The translations under genes and the position numbers were made by a program. The notes under the pieces are model-generated. The model saw only the letters and a program-made list of their open reading frames with translations. It had not been told where the DNA came from and ran no database searches. 36,488 bases of DNA from an uncultured Planctomycetales bacterium (GTDB lineage: Bacteria > Omnitrophota > Gorgyraeia > Zapsychrales > Zapsychraceae): positions 1 through 36,488 of the forward strand of contig CAZIRV010000004.1 in the NCBI GenBank assembly GCA_964541845.1, given 5' to 3'. Below are positions 3,186-36,488 of the stretch, piece by piece (positions within the stretch are counted from its first letter, which is position 1; each line of letters opens with the position of its first letter).

Positions 3186-6429
<3,244 letters not shown>

Positions 6430-6458
<29 letters not shown>

Positions 6459-6572
6459 TATTAGTTTTACTTAGGATCGGCTCAAAAATAACCTCGACAA
6501 CTATATGTCTCAACCCGACAACACTTATGTCATGATTGTCGAGGTTATTTTTGAACGATTCCTTATCTCAAC
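6430..6572. mobile_element. MITE family A fragment interrupted by a family B insertion
   Basis: 6430-6473 plus 6566-6572 correspond to the reverse complement of about 4-55. Confidence 0.75.
6474..6562. mobile_element. MITE family B (89 bp) with TTA target duplication
   Basis: TIRs GGATCGGCTCAAAAATAACCTCGACAA/TTGTCGAGGTTATTTTTGAACGATTCC, with TTA at 6471-6473 and 6563-6565. The empty site is visible in the 1-55 copy. Confidence 0.85.
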
Positions 6573-8767: not shown

Positions 8768-8770
8768 TTA

Positions 8771-8879
8771 TAATATCAATTCCATTAAATAATGACCAAA
8801 ATTCATTTTGCTTGTCTCGACGCTTCAACGAGACACAGCAATTTTAAAATAGAGCAATTATTTAATGGATTTGGTATTA
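8771..8879. mobile_element. MITE family A, full length (109 bp)
   Basis: TIRs TAATATCAATTCCATTAAATAAT/ATTATTTAATGGATTTGGTATTA. The reverse complement aligns end to end with 21348-21456. Confidence 0.85.
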
Positions 8880-8904
8880 TAGGAGCAGGTTCAAAACCTG
8901 TCCG
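8880..8904. repeat. GTAG-type REP palindrome
   Basis: TAGGAGCAGGTTCAAAACCTGTCCG, matching the copies at 18645 and 21277. Confidence 0.7.
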
Positions 8905-15696: not shown

Positions 15697-15830
15697 CTTA
15701 CCTCTTTGCCTTCGGCAAAGGTCCTCTCCCGAAGGAGAGGGGAAATCGTTGGTTCGCAGAGGGAAGGGTTTTGAGTGGGTAATTTTTATCTCCCTTCGGG
15801 AGAGGGTCTCTGCCGTAGGCAAGAAGTGAG
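15697..15830. repeat. Composite CCTCTCCC-type inverted repeat element
   Basis: Arms 15697-15738 and 15789-15830 are imperfect reverse complements, and each contains sub-hairpins (CTTTGCC-TTC-GGCAAAG; CCTCTCC-CGAA-GGAGAGG). Related to 24527-24554. Confidence 0.75.
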
Positions 15831-17280: not shown

Positions 17281-18674
17281 AAGAAATTAAGAAGGCCGTT
17301 GGCAAGAGACCTTGCCGGGAAGACGCATCCGTAAAGATAACCGGCGTATCAATTAATTCCCGAACACTTAAAAAGGGAAATGTTTTTATTGCCATTAAAG
17401 GCGAAAAGTTTGATGGGCATGATTTCATAAAAGAAGCCCTAAAAAAAGGAGCAGCCGTTATCGTTTCAAACCCAAACAAACACCGGGTGTTTGTTTGGGT
17501 CAAGGATGAAAACCCAAACAAACACCCGGTGTTTGTTTGGGTTAAGGACACGACGAAGGCATTGGGGCAGATTGCGGCTTGGCATCGGAGGAGATTTAAT
17601 GTCCCGGTGATTGCGGTTACGGGAAGCACGGGCAAGACAACCACAAAGGACATGATAGCGGCTATATTGAAGACAAAATATAAAGTGCTTAAGAATTTTA
17701 AAACAGAGAATAATCATTATGGGGTTCCTTTAACGCTTTTGCAATTAAACGCGTCATACCAAATGGTTGTGCTTGAATTTGGAACAAATCAAAAGGGGGA
17801 TATAGAGTGGATCGGTAAGATTGCCTGCCCCACAATAGTTGTATTTACTAATGTTGGTCATTCTCATTTGCAAGGGTTAAAAACACCGTCTGGAGTTTTT
17901 TGTGAAAAATTTCAACTGGTTAAACACATGGCGCTAAATGGCCACATTATTTTTAATAAAGATGATTATTATTTAAAAGCAATTGAGATGAAGAAAATTT
18001 CACAAAGAAAAATAAGTTACGCGGTTGTATCTAAAGCGGATTATCAGATTAATGAAATTGTAGATAGGAATAACAAATCCATTAGTTTTAAGTTTAAAAG
18101 AAAAATATTTTCTTTAAAAACTCCGGTAGAACACAATATTTACAATGCATTGGCGGCCGTTTGTTGTGGAGTAATAAATAAAATTAACTATAATAATATT
18201 GTTAAAAGTCTTTCCATGTTCAAATTTTCCGGAGGACGGCAGGAGATTAAGCGGGTTGGAAAATTTTGGGTTATTGATGATACATATAATGCTAACCCTG
18301 TTTCTTTTATGAGCGCCATTCAAACATTAGAGAATTTTCAAACAAAAGGGCAAAGAATAGCGGTGTGTGCCGATATGGCTGAACTGGGGGAACAATCCAG
18401 GGATCTGCATCAAGAAGTGGGGGAAAAAATAGCAGAGGCCAATATTGATGTGGTTATGACTTTAGGAGAGGATGCCCGGTTTATCGCGCAAGCGGTTAAA
18501 AAATTTAATAAACACATTAAAACATTTCATTGCACACAAATTCATACCATTTATCGAAATTTACAAAAAATCCTTAAACCGAAAGATATTGTTTTGGTAA
18601 AAGGCTCACGTTGTATGCGCATGGAGCGTGTGGTGGAATATATCGTAGGGACAGGTTCCAAACCTGACCAATAA
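17268..18674 (+). CDS. murF: UDP-MurNAc-tripeptide--D-Ala-D-Ala ligase MurF
   Basis: AVTGSTGKTTTK, DDTYNANPVS, MAELG and VKGSR motifs. Confidence 0.95.
   Translation: MFTLEEIKKAVGKRPCREDASVKITGVSINSRTLKKGNVFIAIKGEKFDGHDFIKEALKKGAAVIVSNPNKHRVFVWVKDENPNKHPVFVWVKDTTKALGQIAAWHRRRFNVPVIAVTGSTGKTTTKDMIAAILKTKYKVLKNFKTENNHYGVPLTLLQLNASYQMVVLEFGTNQKGDIEWIGKIACPTIVVFTNVGHSHLQGLKTPSGVFCEKFQLVKHMALNGHIIFNKDDYYLKAIEMKKISQRKISYAVVSKADYQINEIVDRNNKSISFKFKRKIFSLKTPVEHNIYNALAAVCCGVINKINYNNIVKSLSMFKFSGGRQEIKRVGKFWVIDDTYNANPVSFMSAIQTLENFQTKGQRIAVCADMAELGEQSRDLHQEVGEKIAEANIDVVMTLGEDARFIAQAVKKFNKHIKTFHCTQIHTIYRNLQKILKPKDIVLVKGSRCMRMERVVEYIVGTGSKPDQ
17470..17543. repeat. Tandem pair of near-perfect palindromes in frame within murF
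   Basis: ACCCAAACAAACACC-N-GGTGTTTGTTTGGGT occurs twice with a 42-bp period and encodes NPNKH(R/P)VFVWVKD twice. Confidence 0.9.
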
Positions 18675-21343: not shown

Positions 21344-21347
21344 GAAA

Positions 21348-21456
21348 TAATACCGATTTCATTAAATAATTGCTCTATTTTTAACTCTGCTATTCTCGTT
21401 AAAGCGTCGAGAAAAGCAAAATTGATTTTGGTTATTATTTAATGGAATTGGTATAA
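21348..21456. mobile_element. MITE family A, full length (109 bp)
   Basis: TAATACCGATTTCATTAAATAAT...ATTATTTAATGGAATTGGTATAA, an inverted homolog of 8771-8879. Confidence 0.85.
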
Positions 21457-21470
21457 TATAAAATATTGCC

Positions 21471-24440: not shown

Positions 24441-24514
24441 GTAGGGGACGTTGATTGATTAATTGATTTGGGGTATAGTAATTTCAAATCAATTAATCAA
24501 TCAACGTCCCCTAC
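24441..24514. repeat. GTAG-terminated perfect 30-bp inverted repeat
   Basis: GTAGGGGACGTTGATTGATTAATTGATTTG, a 14-nt loop and the exact reverse complement. Confidence 0.9.
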
Positions 24515-24573: not shown

Positions 24574-26952
24574 ATGAAAAAATATTATCATTTTATCGGA
24601 ATCGGTGGGATTGGCATGGGGACATTGGCTTCTCTATTATTGAGTAAGGGGTGTAAGGTTAGTGGTTCGGATATTCGTCAGAATGCTATGATGGAACGAT
24701 TACAAAAAGAAGGCGCGCGTATATTTTATGGCCATGATGCCTCGTATATTAATGACGCGGATTGTGTTGTTTTTTCTTCGGCTATTTCAAAAAATAATCC
24801 TGAAATTTCCGCGGCGAAGAAAAAGCAGATTGCTGTCATTCCGCGCGCGCGACTTTTAGTTGATTTGATGAAAGGGTATGACGGGATAACCGTTGCCGGA
24901 GCGCATGGAAAAACAACAACATCATCCATGATAGCGAGGTTGTTAATTAAAGCTGACTTTAAACCGACCGTTGCGGTAGGGGGCAGTACAGAAGGAAGTA
25001 CTAATAACGCCTTGTTGGGAAGCGGCAATTATTTTGTTGCTGAGCTTGATGAAAGTGATGGATCATTTTTGTATTTTAAACCGAAATATTCTGTCATTAC
25101 AAATATTGATTTTGAACATGTGGATTATTATCAGAATTGGGATAATATTCTTAACGCATATCGGAAATTTATGAATCAAACAGAAGAAGAGGGTAAGTTG
25201 TTTGTGTGTGGCGATGATTTCCGTTTATCCTGTTTGATGAAAGAGAGTACAAAAAATTTTGTAACCTATGGGTTTTCAGAAGAGAATGATTGTGTGGCGC
25301 GGAATATTGTTATTAAAGGGTTTGAAACGCGGTTTGAATGTATTTTTCAGGGAAAACATTTGGGAAGTATTCACCTGAATGTCCCCGGAAGACATAATAT
25401 TCTTAACGCGCTTGCCTGCATCAGCGTGGGGATTGATTTATCTATTGATTTTAATATTATTCAGAAAAGTTTGGAAGAATATCGATCTGTTCGTCGAAGA
25501 TTTCAGGTAAAAGGAAAGGTTAATGGCGCTCAAATTATTGATGATTATGCGCATCATCCGACGGAAATAAAAGCCGTGCTTGAAACAGCCCAACAATTAT
25601 TAAAAGGGGACAGCGCCCTATTTTCAGATAGAAAGAATAAAAAAATAGGGCGCTGTCCCCTTTTAATTACGGTTTTTCAGCCGCATCGTTATTCCCGTCT
25701 TCAGGCACTTTTTAAAGAATTTGTTGTTGGTTTTAGTCAGAGTGATTACGTTATTGTAACGGATATTTACGCGGCCAGTGAAGAGCCTATTGAAGGGGTA
25801 ACTTCGCAAAAGCTTGTTAAAGCTATTGAAGAAGTGACGGATAGCCCCGTTGTTTATGTTGAAAGAGAACATGTTGAGGCGTATTTGGTCGATATTGTGG
25901 AGCCTGAAGATCTTGTTTTAACATTGGGGGCAGGGGATATTACAGATGTATTAAAAGGGGACAGCGCCCTTTTTTATGAAGAAAATGGGTTTAAAAAAGG
26001 ACGCTGTATAGGTGTTTTAATGGGGGGGTATTCCTCGGAGAGGGCAATTTCGCTTAAATCAGGGCGAGCTGTTTATGAAGTCTTGAAGGCATCCGGATGT
26101 GATGTTGTGGCTATCGATATTACTGAACGCGATGAAAATAAAATTTTAGCACAAATTTTAAAAGCAGATATAGAACTTGCTTTTATAGCGCTCCATGGTC
26201 AATTAGGTGAGGACGGAACTATTCAAACTATTTTGGAAAAATCCGGCATCCCTTATACGGGATCAGGGGTTGAGGCAAGCCGGCTGGCTATTAATAAAAT
26301 TGACACAAAGATATTATTAAAAAATAATGGGATTGCTGTTCCAAGGTTTGTAAAAGGGGACAGCAACCTTTTTTATAAAAAAAATGGGTTTAAAAAAGTT
26401 TGCTGTCCCCTTTTACCCTTACCTTGTGTGGTGAAACCCATTTATGAAGGGTCGAGTATCGGCATTAGTTTGGTGAGAAAAACAGAAGAATGGGAAGCGG
26501 CGATTAAAACGGCGCGCCAATATGGAACAGAAGTTTTATGTGAAGAATATATTAAAGGGCGGGAATTAACCGTGGGTATTCTTGGGAAAATTCCATTACC
26601 GGTGATTGAAATTTGTCCGGAAAAGGAGTTTTTTGATTTTACGGCGAAATATAATAAAGGCATGACAGATTATATTGTTCCGGCAAAAATTTTGGATAAA
26701 ACAGCTTCTGTTCTCCAGGAGATTGCTTTGAGCGTTCATAACATTGTAGGGTGCAAAGATTTTTCGCGGGTTGATTTTATCCTCAGTGAAGAGGGAATTC
26801 CCTATGTTTTGGAAATTAATACTATTCCGGGATTTACAGAAACCAGCCTGTTACCCATGGCGGCTCAACACACAGGAATGGATTTTCAGCAGCTATGCCG
26901 ACAATTGGTGATGATGAATATAGGGACAGGACTGACCCCTGTCCCTACGTAA
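24574..26952 (+). CDS. murC-ddl: Bifunctional MurC / D-Ala-D-Ala ligase fusion
   Basis: MurC motifs (HFIGIGGIGM, GAHGKTTT, DESDGSF, DDYAHHPTE, FQPHRYSR, GAGDI) run into Ddl motifs (MGGYSSER, LHGQLGEDG, GSSIG, EINTIPG) with no stop. Start moved to ATG 24574. Confidence 0.93.
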   Translation: MKKYYHFIGIGGIGMGTLASLLLSKGCKVSGSDIRQNAMMERLQKEGARIFYGHDASYINDADCVVFSSAISKNNPEISAAKKKQIAVIPRARLLVDLMKGYDGITVAGAHGKTTTSSMIARLLIKADFKPTVAVGGSTEGSTNNALLGSGNYFVAELDESDGSFLYFKPKYSVITNIDFEHVDYYQNWDNILNAYRKFMNQTEEEGKLFVCGDDFRLSCLMKESTKNFVTYGFSEENDCVARNIVIKGFETRFECIFQGKHLGSIHLNVPGRHNILNALACISVGIDLSIDFNIIQKSLEEYRSVRRRFQVKGKVNGAQIIDDYAHHPTEIKAVLETAQQLLKGDSALFSDRKNKKIGRCPLLITVFQPHRYSRLQALFKEFVVGFSQSDYVIVTDIYAASEEPIEGVTSQKLVKAIEEVTDSPVVYVEREHVEAYLVDIVEPEDLVLTLGAGDITDVLKGDSALFYEENGFKKGRCIGVLMGGYSSERAISLKSGRAVYEVLKASGCDVVAIDITERDENKILAQILKADIELAFIALHGQLGEDGTIQTILEKSGIPYTGSGVEASRLAINKIDTKILLKNNGIAVPRFVKGDSNLFYKKNGFKKVCCPLLPLPCVVKPIYEGSSIGISLVRKTEEWEAAIKTARQYGTEVLCEEYIKGRELTVGILGKIPLPVIEICPEKEFFDFTAKYNKGMTDYIVPAKILDKTASVLQEIALSVHNIVGCKDFSRVDFILSEEGIPYVLEINTIPGFTETSLLPMAAQHTGMDFQQLCRQLVMMNIGTGLTPVPT
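25599..25667. repeat. In-frame palindrome family H, copy 1 (MurC domain)
   Basis: 26-bp perfect inverted arms ATTAAAAGGGGACAGCGCCCTATTTT, encoding LKGDSALFSDRKNKKIGRCPLL. Confidence 0.92.
25951..26007. repeat. In-frame palindrome family H, copy 2 (MurC-Ddl junction, right arm truncated)
   Basis: TTAAAAGGGGACAGCGCCCTTTTTTA...TAAAAAAGGACGCTGT, encoding LKGDSALFYEENGFKKGRC. Confidence 0.88.
26350..26416. repeat. In-frame palindrome family H, copy 3 (Ddl domain)
   Basis: GTAAAAGGGGACAGCAA...TTGCTGTCCCCTTTTAC, encoding VKGDSNLFYKKNGFKKVCCPLL. Confidence 0.9.
26920..26948. repeat. GTAG-type REP encoding the Ddl C-terminus
   Basis: TAGGGACAGG-ACTGACC-CCTGTCCCTAC, encoding IGTGLTPVPT. Confidence 0.8.
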
Positions 26953-35828: not shown

Positions 35829-36488
35829 ATGAGAAATATATTTAATTTAATATGTATAGGTGCCAGGCACCCAAAAGGGACACTTAATAAATTTAATAAT
35901 TTGTTTTTTTGGGTGCCATTTTGGGTGCCAGGTACCTTATTTTTCGCCCTTACGATATTGGTATTTTTACTATTCACCACTCAAGCCTTTGCGGTTACAG
36001 AGGTTAAGACGTCAATCGGAACGAAGGCGGCCGTGAATGTGGATATTGTGGGTGTTAGCGGATCGGGACCTTACACGATATTGACTTCTGGAACAAGTAA
36101 TCTTCAGGTGGGAGATGTTTTGACAGATGAACAGGCTACACCTGAAACTTATTTAGTTACTTCTATCAATACGGCGACTCTCTTTAATGTTATTAAACAT
36201 ACCTTTGGAGCAGCAAATGATCCTTCCTTTGCTGGAGTCAGTCAAGCCACCATCAAACGCGCCTATGCAACTCTTCAGGCATGGGAAGATGGAGAAGGTG
36301 GCGATTTAGTTGCGGCTGATGAACAACGTATAGGGGAGGCATATAATGATTCAACATTTACAGCTGGGGTTACTATTGATGGTTCGACCACGGATGCCAC
36401 GCGCTATATGAAGTTAACCGTAGCTGAAAGTGATCATCATAATGAGGTGGCGTCTTCAGGGGTTAAGATTGATACAAGTGCGGCAGGT
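35829..36488 (+). CDS. Secreted/surface protein, 5' portion (runs off the window; absent from the ORF track)
   Basis: GAGGAGG RBS, ATG 35829 and 220 open codons to the window end. The signal peptide ends TQAFA and is followed by T/G/S/A-rich sequence (RAYATLQAWEDGEGGDLV...GSTTDATRY). Confidence 0.85.
   Translation, partial: MRNIFNLICIGARHPKGTLNKFNNLFFWVPFWVPGTLFFALTILVFLLFTTQAFAVTEVKTSIGTKAAVNVDIVGVSGSGPYTILTSGTSNLQVGDVLTDEQATPETYLVTSINTATLFNVIKHTFGAANDPSFAGVSQATIKRAYATLQAWEDGEGGDLVAADEQRIGEAYNDSTFTAGVTIDGSTTDATRYMKLTVAESDHHNEVASSGVKIDTSAAG
35858..35937. repeat. In-frame palindrome in the signal-peptide region
   Basis: AGGTGCCAGGCACCCAAAAGGGACAC...GTGCCATTTTGGGTGCCAGGTACCT. Confidence 0.8.

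Follow-up and report, generated by a model that had tools for sequence, protein, structure and literature searches.

The linker that joins MurC to Ddl in a fused gene of an uncultured Omnitrophota bacterium probably derives from a short palindromic repeat of REP type and is a decayed copy of it. Such a repeat is a hairpin element that is non-autonomous and belongs to the kind that RAYT-type Y1 transposases mobilise. The element is likely to have entered the linker of a pre-existing fusion and to have eroded it afterwards. The window (the whole stretch of DNA analysed, 36,488 nt) carries murC-ddl as one open frame on the forward strand (24574–26952, 792 aa from the ATG plus the stop), and the translation has no internal stop codon. 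All five Pfam matches to this ORF are above cut-off (Mur_ligase, Mur_ligase_M and Mur_ligase_C, then Dala_Dala_lig_N and Dala_Dala_lig_C), every MurC and Ddl domain lies in the single uninterrupted frame and the AF2 model has a mean pLDDT of 83.4. Judging from the sequence, we would expect the protein to be produced and active as a bifunctional MurC-Ddl enzyme. A TTG start at 24463, within the upstream palindrome, is probably spurious. We considered that ddl might start internally, at the conserved Met in VLMGG, but set this aside, as on our reading it would cost the first Ddl strand. The features are collected in Table 1.

Table 1. Parts of the fused gene and palindromic elements in and near it (positions in the window)
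Feature	Position	Strand	Description
MurC part	24574..25950	+	ends GAGDITDV; lacks the C-terminal helix that relatives carry after GAGDIT
Ddl part	26008..26952	+	begins IGVLMGG; lacks its own start codon and the usual N-terminal residues
Element copy 1	25592..25674	+	full palindrome in MurC domain 3; encodes residues 343-364
Element copy 2 (junction copy)	25950..26007	+	58 nt; left arm complete, right arm truncated; encodes linker residues 460-478
Element copy 3	26350..26416	+	full palindrome in Ddl at the N-terminal/central domain boundary; residues 593-614
Small related hairpin	26921..26947	+	10-nt arms, 7-nt loop, GGGACAG core; encodes the last Ddl residues before the stop
GTAG-headed perfect palindrome	24441..24514	.	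30-nt arms; spacer upstream of murC, outside the ORF read from the ATG

The junction itself is as the earlier note had described it, with the end of MurC, a copy of the palindrome (family H in that note) and the start of Ddl in direct succession: GAGDITDV forms residues 452–459 (nt 25927–25950), LKGDSALFYEENGFKKGRC residues 460–478 (nt 25951–26007) and IGVLMGG residues 479–485. The truncation of the right arm, also noted earlier, was confirmed, its outer part being missing and the copy ending at the Ddl boundary. Only 16 nt of each arm can still pair (25961–25976 with 25992–26007, 94% complementary), and the RNA fold has −19.1 kcal/mol (z −2.6). The 19-residue tether runs from the last strand of MurC to the first of Ddl. 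Disorder is predicted for it (AF2 pLDDT below 50 at residues 461–476), and it may have no role other than linking.

Palindromes in and around the fused gene

The junction copy is one of three direct copies of a 56-nt unit (starting at 25601, 25952 and 26351); over this unit copy 1 is 73% and copy 3 is 88% identical to it, and the likeness of copies 2 and 3 includes the loop. A 21-nt half-site has five matches in the window compared with none in 100 shuffles. Copy 1 (33-nt arms, 91% complementary; RNA fold −43.9 kcal/mol, z −10.5) is a clean net insertion of 17 residues relative to all 14 aligned homologues and is modelled with pLDDT below 50 at residues 347–358. Copy 3 (26-nt arms, 96% complementary; −35.2 kcal/mol, z −7.5) replaces, in the alignment with homologues, a native segment of about 22 residues, and AF2 gives its peptide short helices with pLDDT 57–77. 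The separate palindrome upstream of murC folds more strongly still (−54.7 kcal/mol, z −11.5). As judged from the translation all three copies share the strand and reading frame of the ORF. The remaining frames of the junction copy on both strands contain stops (our own reading of the sequence, by eye), and with one stop-free strand and frame per element only coding-region insertions that use it would survive, which accounts for the common orientation and frame of the copies.

A contig from the likely source run (X1) spans 25400–26600 with no differences. An artefact, with the junction produced by mis-assembly or by chance matching of low-complexity sequence and with murC and ddl truly separate, is extremely improbable. 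The assembly is a MAG fragmented into 184 contigs and Logan contigs from other runs break at palindromes, but an independent study (X2) yields a contig that covers 25936–26389 with no differences, although this has 14 nt to the left of the junction element and leaves that side unbridged under a 31-nt rule. The same three elements also occur in a relative of about 92% identity (X3), where copies 1 and 3 are accompanied by the left arm of the junction copy, into which 12 nt have been inserted in frame. Further points against an artefact are that the three copies are not identical to each other, that shuffled sequence never gave the half-site and that the homologues P0002–P0004 are independent fused records.

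Affinity with REP elements

REP/RAYT systems are reportedly associated with the names of Nunvar et al. 2010 and Bertels & Rainey 2011. The present repeat behaves like a REP, consisting of short imperfect stem-loop palindromes (arms 16–33 nt, z −2.6 to −10.5), and its mobilisation by a RAYT is suggested by its company in other genomes. In two other Omnitrophota genomes (G041 and G044) the same GGGGACAGC...GCTGTCCCC palindromes flank a RAYT-like transposase gene, lying on both sides of it in G041 (locus L186) and, in G044 (L187), as a full copy upstream and a half-site at the stop. These are two of 12 Y1_Tnp loci (L182–L193) taken from five other genomes, and the RAYT-like proteins score 71–76 bits against NF047646, below its cut-off of 80, with 71–73 bits for those of G041 and G044. 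Exact-pattern copies number 38 in G041, 11 in G044, 3 in G042, 4 in G043 and 3 in G045, with none for reversed-pattern controls. The genome in hand has six GGGACAG...CTGTCCC palindromes and the truncated junction copy, four of the seven being in one gene, and none of its four Y1_Tnp loci is flanked by palindromes of this family. This small complement of about seven members, with RAYT-like genes here unflanked by the family, counts against insertion of a mobile element into an older linker, as does the fact that our reading of the sequence found no clear target-site duplication flanking the copies. Compared with a MITE, which has terminal inverted repeats and a target-site duplication, the element is palindromic over its whole length.

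Comparison with known systems places the repeat close to intragenic REPs, described by Di Nocera et al. 2013 (PMC3733652) as short stem-loop repeats, some of them translated in frame at flexible positions within housekeeping genes. Shared with these are the short stem-loop, the mostly intergenic position elsewhere and the in-frame position of some copies; shared with a REPtron is the flanking of a RAYT-like Y1 transposase gene by the same palindromes in the two genomes named above. The differences are that the copies start TAAAAGGGGAC and their cousins ATAGGGAC, the head being AAAG or ATAG rather than the REP tag GTAG or CGTC (Di Nocera 2013), and the only palindrome that starts with GTAG is the separate one at 24441; that the stem-loop is 60–80 nt with a loop of 15–17 nt; that there are about seven copies and no flanked RAYT in this genome; and that a copy here would serve as the tether of a bifunctional enzyme. 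The RPEs of Rickettsia, of about 150 bp with a conserved family peptide (Ogata et al. 2000, as summarised in PMC10969869 and PMC3733652), are likewise palindromes in frame in essential metabolic genes, read through as an extra peptide at fold-compatible sites. Alignment to homologues and low pLDDT over the element peptides show that the insertions described here also lie in frame at sites that the structure tolerates. The likeness to RPEs is drawn from their description, and the present family is shorter (58–83 nt against about 100–150 bp for RPE-1 to RPE-10) and linked to RAYT-like genes. With SPRITE (a name that appears in PMC10969869) and other terminator-like hairpin repeats the repeat shares an A-run, a GC-rich stem, a T-run and the mostly intergenic position of its copies, but its loop is too long for a consensus terminator scan and copies lie inside an ORF.

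In-frame insertions of REP or RPE type are thus already known as a kind; what is unusual here is that a copy serves as inter-domain tether, that the copies are concentrated in a single gene and that hairpins persist at fixed sites with sequences that differ by lineage. This one hairpin family of Omnitrophota, tied as it is to RAYT-like genes, offers a testable mechanism of mobilisation for in-frame hairpins that recur in the phylum. Our literature search found nothing that joins Omnitrophota or Omnitrophica with palindromic repeats, REP or RAYT, CRISPR-type mentions aside.

History of the fusion

Ordinary linkers, with the MurC C-terminal helix retained, occur in dozens of the MurC-Ddl fusions of Omnitrophota, these homologues coming from a search whose length window favours fusions. 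Where the junction could be parsed (68 of the best 80 matches) linkers are 17–81 residues long, and a helix-like MurC tail follows GAGDIT in all except P0001–P0005. P0001, P0002 and the pair P0003 and P0004 form a clade with SH-aLRT support of 100 on MurC and Ddl cores and 93 on Ddl alone, and their nearest outgroup, P0005, which is fused and has no element-like peptide, joins them with support of 100 in both trees. None of the 20 best stand-alone Ddl proteins included in the Ddl-only tree falls inside the P0001–P0005 clade. The position of P0006 and P0007 depends on the tree: one places them weakly with the clade (89), the other with unfused rows. Well-supported branches force at least five changes of fusion state; fusion and fission are frequent in this MurC-Ddl family, and fusion has been gained or lost repeatedly within Omnitrophota. 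In this respect the phylum differs from the MurC-Ddl chimeras of Chlamydiae and Firmicutes, the likeness to which is one of domain order (MurC then Ddl in one polypeptide, same Pfam domains); the survey of these left out unidentified species and, in its available portion, gives 0 occurrences for Omnitrophica (PMC10214165). A fusion usually discussed for Chlamydiae and Firmicutes is widespread in Omnitrophota. The Selenomonadaceae fusions are only 38–40% identical.

These relationships bear on the two alternatives left by the earlier note, a repeat-associated deletion that created the fusion or an element that replaced the linker of an older one; the second is the better supported, since P0005 is fused and element-free, and the first is the less likely. 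On the favoured reading, a REP-like copy would have entered the inter-domain linker of an already fused murC-ddl in the common ancestor of P0001–P0004. Erosion that kept the frame would later have taken the tail helix of MurC, what was left of the old linker and the outer portion of the right arm. The 58 nt that remain in this genome encode nearly the whole of the tether. This order of events is inferred. Relatives with the same fusion and an ordinary linker were to speak against an element-caused fusion, and P0005 does so, although the test is weakened by the frequency of fusion and fission: with at least five changes of state P0005 could be an independent fusion.

The alternative, which we consider rather unlikely, is that P0001–P0004 descend from an unfused ancestor in whose murC-ddl spacer the REP landed, and that the stop of murC and the start of ddl were then lost, through a deletion or through the insertion itself, which joined the frames by way of the single open frame of the element. 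Elsewhere the family palindromes lie mostly between genes (no open frame crosses 86 of 122 copies, in an ORF test that is uninformative for GC-rich genomes), so that landing in a spacer would be expected. Nothing remains of the MurC tail, the stop, the spacer and the ddl start, the right arm stops exactly at the Ddl boundary and the motif distance is the shortest of 18 loci (96 nt, the others 111–363 nt), features that would also fit a fusion-making deletion, and the fusion state is evolutionarily labile in the family. Against this, besides the sister lineage P0005, P0002 has a complete two-armed element-like peptide together with a retained tail, which means that truncation was unnecessary for fusion, and none of 20 unfused relative loci has a spacer palindrome of 14 nt or more.

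The absence of murB, also recorded earlier, holds for the cluster but not for the genome, as a murB of 301 aa lies on contig C83 (MurB_C 78.6 bits, FAD_binding_4 68.6 bits). Adjacency of murC and ddl without murB is found in 37 of 40 relatives in the order and is ancestral to it, and murB was in this respect a misleading clue. Since murB is elsewhere and the murB-less adjacency is ancestral, no murB-removing deletion is tied to the element.

Element peptides in the closest homologues

P0002 keeps a 9-residue MurC tail together with a two-armed element-like peptide in its linker, and it has KVGTHP and KKVGCVPTF twice each, once at the junction and once at the Ddl hinge, both of them sites of elements in this genome too. 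In P0003 and P0004 an LRGDR... peptide starts exactly where LKGDS... starts here. From these peptides it appears that P0002–P0004 have palindromes at both sites, whereas copy 1 is absent from them. No inverted repeat of 14 nt or more was present in the junction DNA of 24 relatives, which confines the element to a small clade. When the proteins were back-translated and scanned for perfect stems of at least 18 nt, the P0002 junction and the P0003 hinge alone were flagged, but with 47 hits in 40 shuffled proteins the background was too high for the scan to count by itself. In the search for DNA of the closest homologues, nothing among all 45 genomes of the family came closer than 54%, and a metagenome scan with P0002 gave a best match of 55%, P0002's own contig being absent from the results.

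The peptides differ by lineage (KGDS-type here, VGTHP-type in P0002, RDRS-type in P0003 and P0004). It is possible, and we put it forward tentatively, that the tether and the Ddl hinge are heritable landing pads at which palindromes have been kept through 25–32% protein divergence while their sequences were overwritten and homogenised within the gene. If so, the process may be RAYT-mediated replacement at pre-existing hairpins, conversion between arms or copies, or selection for structure at the domain boundary, and the hinge peptide would have taken over a native strand-helix segment of similar length, selfish DNA having been exapted to serve as protein structure. Hairpins that stay in place while their sequences turn over would, if confirmed on DNA, have a bearing on REP maintenance.

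Quite unlikely, in our view, is that the hairpins are kept for a role of the RNA or DNA structure itself (ribosome pausing at the domain boundary, mRNA protection or processing, or a protein-binding site), with linker coding secondary. It would explain why palindrome-like peptides of differing sequence stand at the same two sites in four lineages with 68–75% protein identity, why copies 2 and 3 are so alike, loop included, and why copies 1 and 3 fold so strongly; in X3, 2 differences are listed over the 83 nt of copy 1 and the contig piece as a whole has 44 over 577 nt, a comparison in which 20 differences are unlisted. However, the junction copy is the weakest hairpin, with its right arm lost, copy 1 has no counterpart in P0002–P0004, Rfam gives the elements no family at threshold (sub-threshold generic hairpin matches only) and the consensus terminator scan does not flag them, and conversion from arm to arm or copy to copy could preserve palindromes without selection.

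Taken as the remnant of an insertion into an older linker, the junction would be a concrete case, on sequence grounds, in which selfish hairpin DNA has provided an essential bifunctional enzyme with a working part, namely the tether of its two catalytic modules, and the same repeat also supplies an apparent substitute for a native Ddl segment. The peptide of the small hairpin at the C-terminus is common to P0002 only among the homologues.

Palindromic copies within the murC–ddl reading frame

The genome (a 2.16 Mb assembly of 184 contigs with 37.8% G+C, the window being contig C4) carries murC and ddl as a single open reading frame, the product of which (P0001) has the domain order Mur_ligase, Mur_ligase_M, Mur_ligase_C, Dala_Dala_lig_N and Dala_Dala_lig_C, each scoring above its Pfam cut-off. 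The earlier note had described the linker between MurC and Ddl as a palindromic element truncated in its right arm at the Ddl boundary, and this was borne out on both counts, as the 19 linker residues are encoded by the element and the outer right arm is missing. A 56-nt unit is present as three direct copies in the frame (starting at 25601, 25952 and 26351), identity with the junction copy being 73% for the first and 88% for the third, and a 21-nt half-site has five matches in the window versus none in 100 shuffles. All three copies use one shared reading frame, and the remaining frames of the junction copy contain stop codons on both strands (read by eye from the sequence). A common orientation and frame are thus no more than survival within a gene demands, and do not point to design.

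Features of the murC–ddl region and other palindromic elements of the window
Feature	Position	Strand	Remarks
GTAG-headed perfect palindrome, 30-nt arms	24441–24514		spacer from upstream gene end (24428) to murC ATG; predicted fold −54.7 kcal/mol, z −11.5
murC–ddl fused ORF	ATG 24574 to stop 26950–26952	+	one open frame, 792 aa
Copy 1	25592–25674		full palindrome, 33-nt arms, 91% complementary; predicted RNA fold −43.9 kcal/mol, z −10.5
MurC end, GAGDITDV	residues 452–459		
Inter-domain linker, 19 residues	25951–26007	+	between GAGDITDV and IGVLMGG
Copy 2 (junction copy)	25950–26007		16-nt arms only, 94% complementary; predicted RNA fold −19.1 kcal/mol, z −2.6
Ddl start, IGVLMGG	residues 479–485		
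Copy 3	26350–26416		full palindrome, 26-nt arms, 96% complementary; predicted RNA fold −35.2 kcal/mol, z −7.5
Small hairpin, GGGACAG core	arms 26921–26930 / 26938–26947	+	encodes last Ddl residues, just 5′ of stop
Further palindromic elements	17469–17543; 15706–15822; 6473–6563; 35858–35937		different sequence families
Palindromic elements	8769–8881; 21347–21457		two copies of one family

In an AlphaFold2 model of P0001 (15-sequence alignment as input, mean pLDDT 83.4) the pLDDT falls below 50 solely at residues 347–358 (copy 1), at 461–476 (linker) and at the C-terminus, while the copy 3 region (57–77) forms two short helices. The model agrees with the element peptides being translated yet structurally tolerated, in accord with what excerpts of the literature describe for Rickettsia RPEs and intragenic REPs (PMC3733652, PMC10969869).

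Contigs from three public sequencing runs were compared over 25400–26600. The likely source run gave a single contig across the region with no differences, and an independent study gave identical contigs broken at the palindromes, one of which (25936–26389) spans the whole junction copy and the Ddl start, extending beyond the element on its left side by just 14 nt. The third run, containing a relative about 92% identical, has copy 1 (two differences among those listed), copy 3 and, of the junction copy, the left arm with a 12-nt in-frame insertion. These contigs show that the element-bearing fusion is no one-off of assembly; the runs listed for the region include none of RNA. Elsewhere in the region, a TTG start called by the ORF finder at 24463 falls within the spacer palindrome, and the C-terminal peptide encoded by the small hairpin is common to P0001 and its closest fused homologue (P0002), other homologues having a lysine-rich tail there.

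Gene order and the relative age of fusion and element

The absence of murB claimed in the earlier note is true at the cluster but false for the genome, where a 301-aa ORF with MurB_C and FAD_binding_4 domains lies away from the dcw cluster (C83:7140–8045), with a cobalamin adenosyltransferase-like gene on one side and an NAD-dependent epimerase/dehydratase gene on the other. In 37 of 40 relatives from the same family or order murC adjoins ddl with no room for murB (the exceptions having the genes on different contigs, fragments only, or no proper match, one case each), and the murC–murB–ddl arrangement that the note gives as common in dcw clusters is kept in more distant Omnitrophota (Pfam-checked in genome G041, judged from gap length only in the others). 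The departure of murB is therefore old and unconnected with the element. In 17 relatives' loci MurC runs 11–30 residues past GAGDIT as a helix-like tail, followed by a stop and a short spacer, and Ddl begins with Met and 5–12 residues ahead of (F/L)G(R/H)I-GVLMGG; the distance between the conserved motifs is 111–363 nt in these loci versus 96 nt, the shortest, in our genome. No inverted repeat of at least 14 nt was found in the junction DNA of 24 relatives.

A protein-collection search returned dozens of MurC–Ddl fusions of 764–824 aa, all named ones from Candidatus Omnitrophica or Omnitrophota, together with Selenomonadaceae fusions (38–40% identity) and triple MurC–MurB–Ddl fusions of roughly 1070 aa (P0081, P0107 and P0113). 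A PNAS 2023 survey of Mur chimeras, as excerpted, assigns the MurC–Ddl type to Chlamydiae and to Firmicutes, leaves out unidentified species and makes no mention of Omnitrophica (PMC10214165). Two open frames of 755–781 aa from other Omnitrophota, beginning with MurC (L149 in G042 and L150 in G043) are probably MurC–MurB fusions. Parsing of the junction succeeded for 68 of the 80 top-ranking matches, giving linkers of 17–81 residues in which the MurC tail is retained except in P0001–P0004 and is shortened in P0005 (P0002–P0004 being the closest homologues of P0001).

A maximum likelihood tree of the MurC and Ddl cores (linker excluded, 50 rows, IQ-TREE quick search, LG+G4, SH-aLRT) places P0001, P0002 and P0003/P0004 together with support of 100 (full-length identity to P0001 of 75% for P0002 and 68% for P0003/P0004), with the fused P0005 as their sister, also at 100; fused P0006 and P0007 join at just 89. 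A Ddl-only tree, to which the 20 best stand-alone Ddl proteins were added (none above 60% identity), retains the P0001–P0005 clade at 100, free of stand-alone Ddl, and the inner P0001–P0004 clade at 93, and P0006 and P0007 fall with unfused rows. The linker of P0005, which is known as a protein only, is an ordinary one of 17 residues without any repeated or palindrome-like peptide. The same fusion with an ordinary linker, named in the earlier note as the test of an element-caused fusion, is thus found in P0005, as it is in most of the 68 parsed junctions. Because of this fused sister, parsimony sets the fusion earlier than the element, although the fusion state requires at least five changes on well-supported branches of the core tree, the fused proteins were retrieved through a length window favouring fusions, and P0005 was seen only at the protein level. 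These caveats leave some room for the other origin that had been proposed, a repeat-associated deletion through which the element created the fusion, but with P0005 lacking an element-like peptide in a clade supported in both trees, and with the murB relocation unrelated, we regard it as unlikely. Entry of the element into the linker of an older fusion is the better supported origin, and we favour it with moderate confidence.

Element sites in the closest homologues

An alignment of P0001 with 14 homologues was used to compare the three sites. Copy 1 is a clean insertion only in P0001, with 20 residues versus three in all 14 other proteins. P0002–P0004 have odd peptides of their own at both the junction and the Ddl hinge (between the N-terminal and central Ddl domains, the site of copy 3). 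In P0002, KVGTHP (residues 449 and 595) and KKVGCVPTF (470 and 608) each occur twice, at the same two sites as copies 2 and 3; the two peptides are encodable by reverse-complementary DNA, and back-translation allows a 20-nt perfect stem at the junction. In P0003 and P0004, LRGDR... begins exactly where P0001 has LKGDS..., and ...SRD.S... and ...CPYF at the hinge are stem-compatible (20 nt in P0003, by back-translation). The background of this stem test is high, with 47 hits among 40 shuffled proteins, and the case therefore rests on position and internal repeats, not on stems alone.

At the hinge, 17–26 element-coded residues stand where P0005–P0008 have a native 22-residue segment, so that the element there appears to be a replacement and not a net insertion. 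At the linker, P0002 keeps a nine-residue MurC tail ahead of a two-armed element, P0003/P0004 have lost the tail, and P0001 has lost both the tail and the outer right arm. The simplest reading of this series, which together with P0005 favours the older fusion, would be that the element entered an existing linker that was then eroded. Copies 2 and 3 of P0001 are alike even in the loop and the two P0002 copies share arms, whereas the element-site sequences differ between lineages, a pattern that points either to the copies being homogenised within the gene or to their being overwritten repeatedly. At the peptide level, the hairpins apparently persist and turn over at fixed sites.

Relation to REP sequences

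Searching this genome with a profile built from four full copies gave one copy on contig C112, half of one on C169 and two cousins (C1 and C9), with no further convincing members of the family. The C112 copy (5018–5091), the sole full copy outside murC–ddl, lies in frame within the leader at the N-terminus of a prepilin-like ORF, with no in-frame start codon found between it and the hydrophobic segment. GGGACAG...CTGTCCC palindromes number six in the assembly, three of them in the P0001 ORF in addition to the truncated junction copy, from which we infer crowding far above random placement. When one genome per species was scanned with the two 11-nt element ends, at least 128 loci in MAGs from several phyla were recovered (L020–L147). 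Among the matches listed the phyla include Omnitrophota, Acidobacteriota, Planctomycetota, Firestonebacteria and Eisenbacteria, the 11-nt ends are identical and the inner stems are genome-specific and always complementary; nested or tandem half-sites are frequent. As no open frame crosses 86 of the 122 listed copies away from locus edges, the family is mostly intergenic outside our genome.

In two of 12 Y1_Tnp loci fetched from five other genomes, a Y1 transposase-like gene (213 or 220 aa) is flanked by the same palindromes, in the Omnitrophota genome G041 on both sides, in the Omnitrophota genome G044 upstream (full copy) and at the stop codon (half-site). The two proteins are 58% identical and have REP-associated tyrosine transposase (RAYT) as best NCBIfam match (71–73 bits, cut-off 80). 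Exact-pattern copies number 38 in G041, 11 in G044 and 3–4 in the three other genomes, with none for reversed-pattern controls. Such flanking and copy numbers suggest REP-like behaviour of the element, whose REPtron-like source would lie in other genomes; it differs from the REPs of Di Nocera et al. (PMC3733652, as excerpted) in being without their GTAG/CGTC tag. The P0001 linker is a decayed REP-like element. In-frame REP/RPE insertion is an already known kind of event, of which P0001 is another member; what stands out is that it serves as an inter-domain tether, that copies are crowded into one gene and that hairpins apparently persist at fixed sites while turning over there. No family palindromes were found around the RAYT-like genes of our own genome (36% identical; a tandem near-identical pair of 212 and 226 aa at C29:1313–2632, L178), and the element set here looks small and possibly relict. 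The C29 pair sits between large repeat-rich surface-protein-like ORFs.
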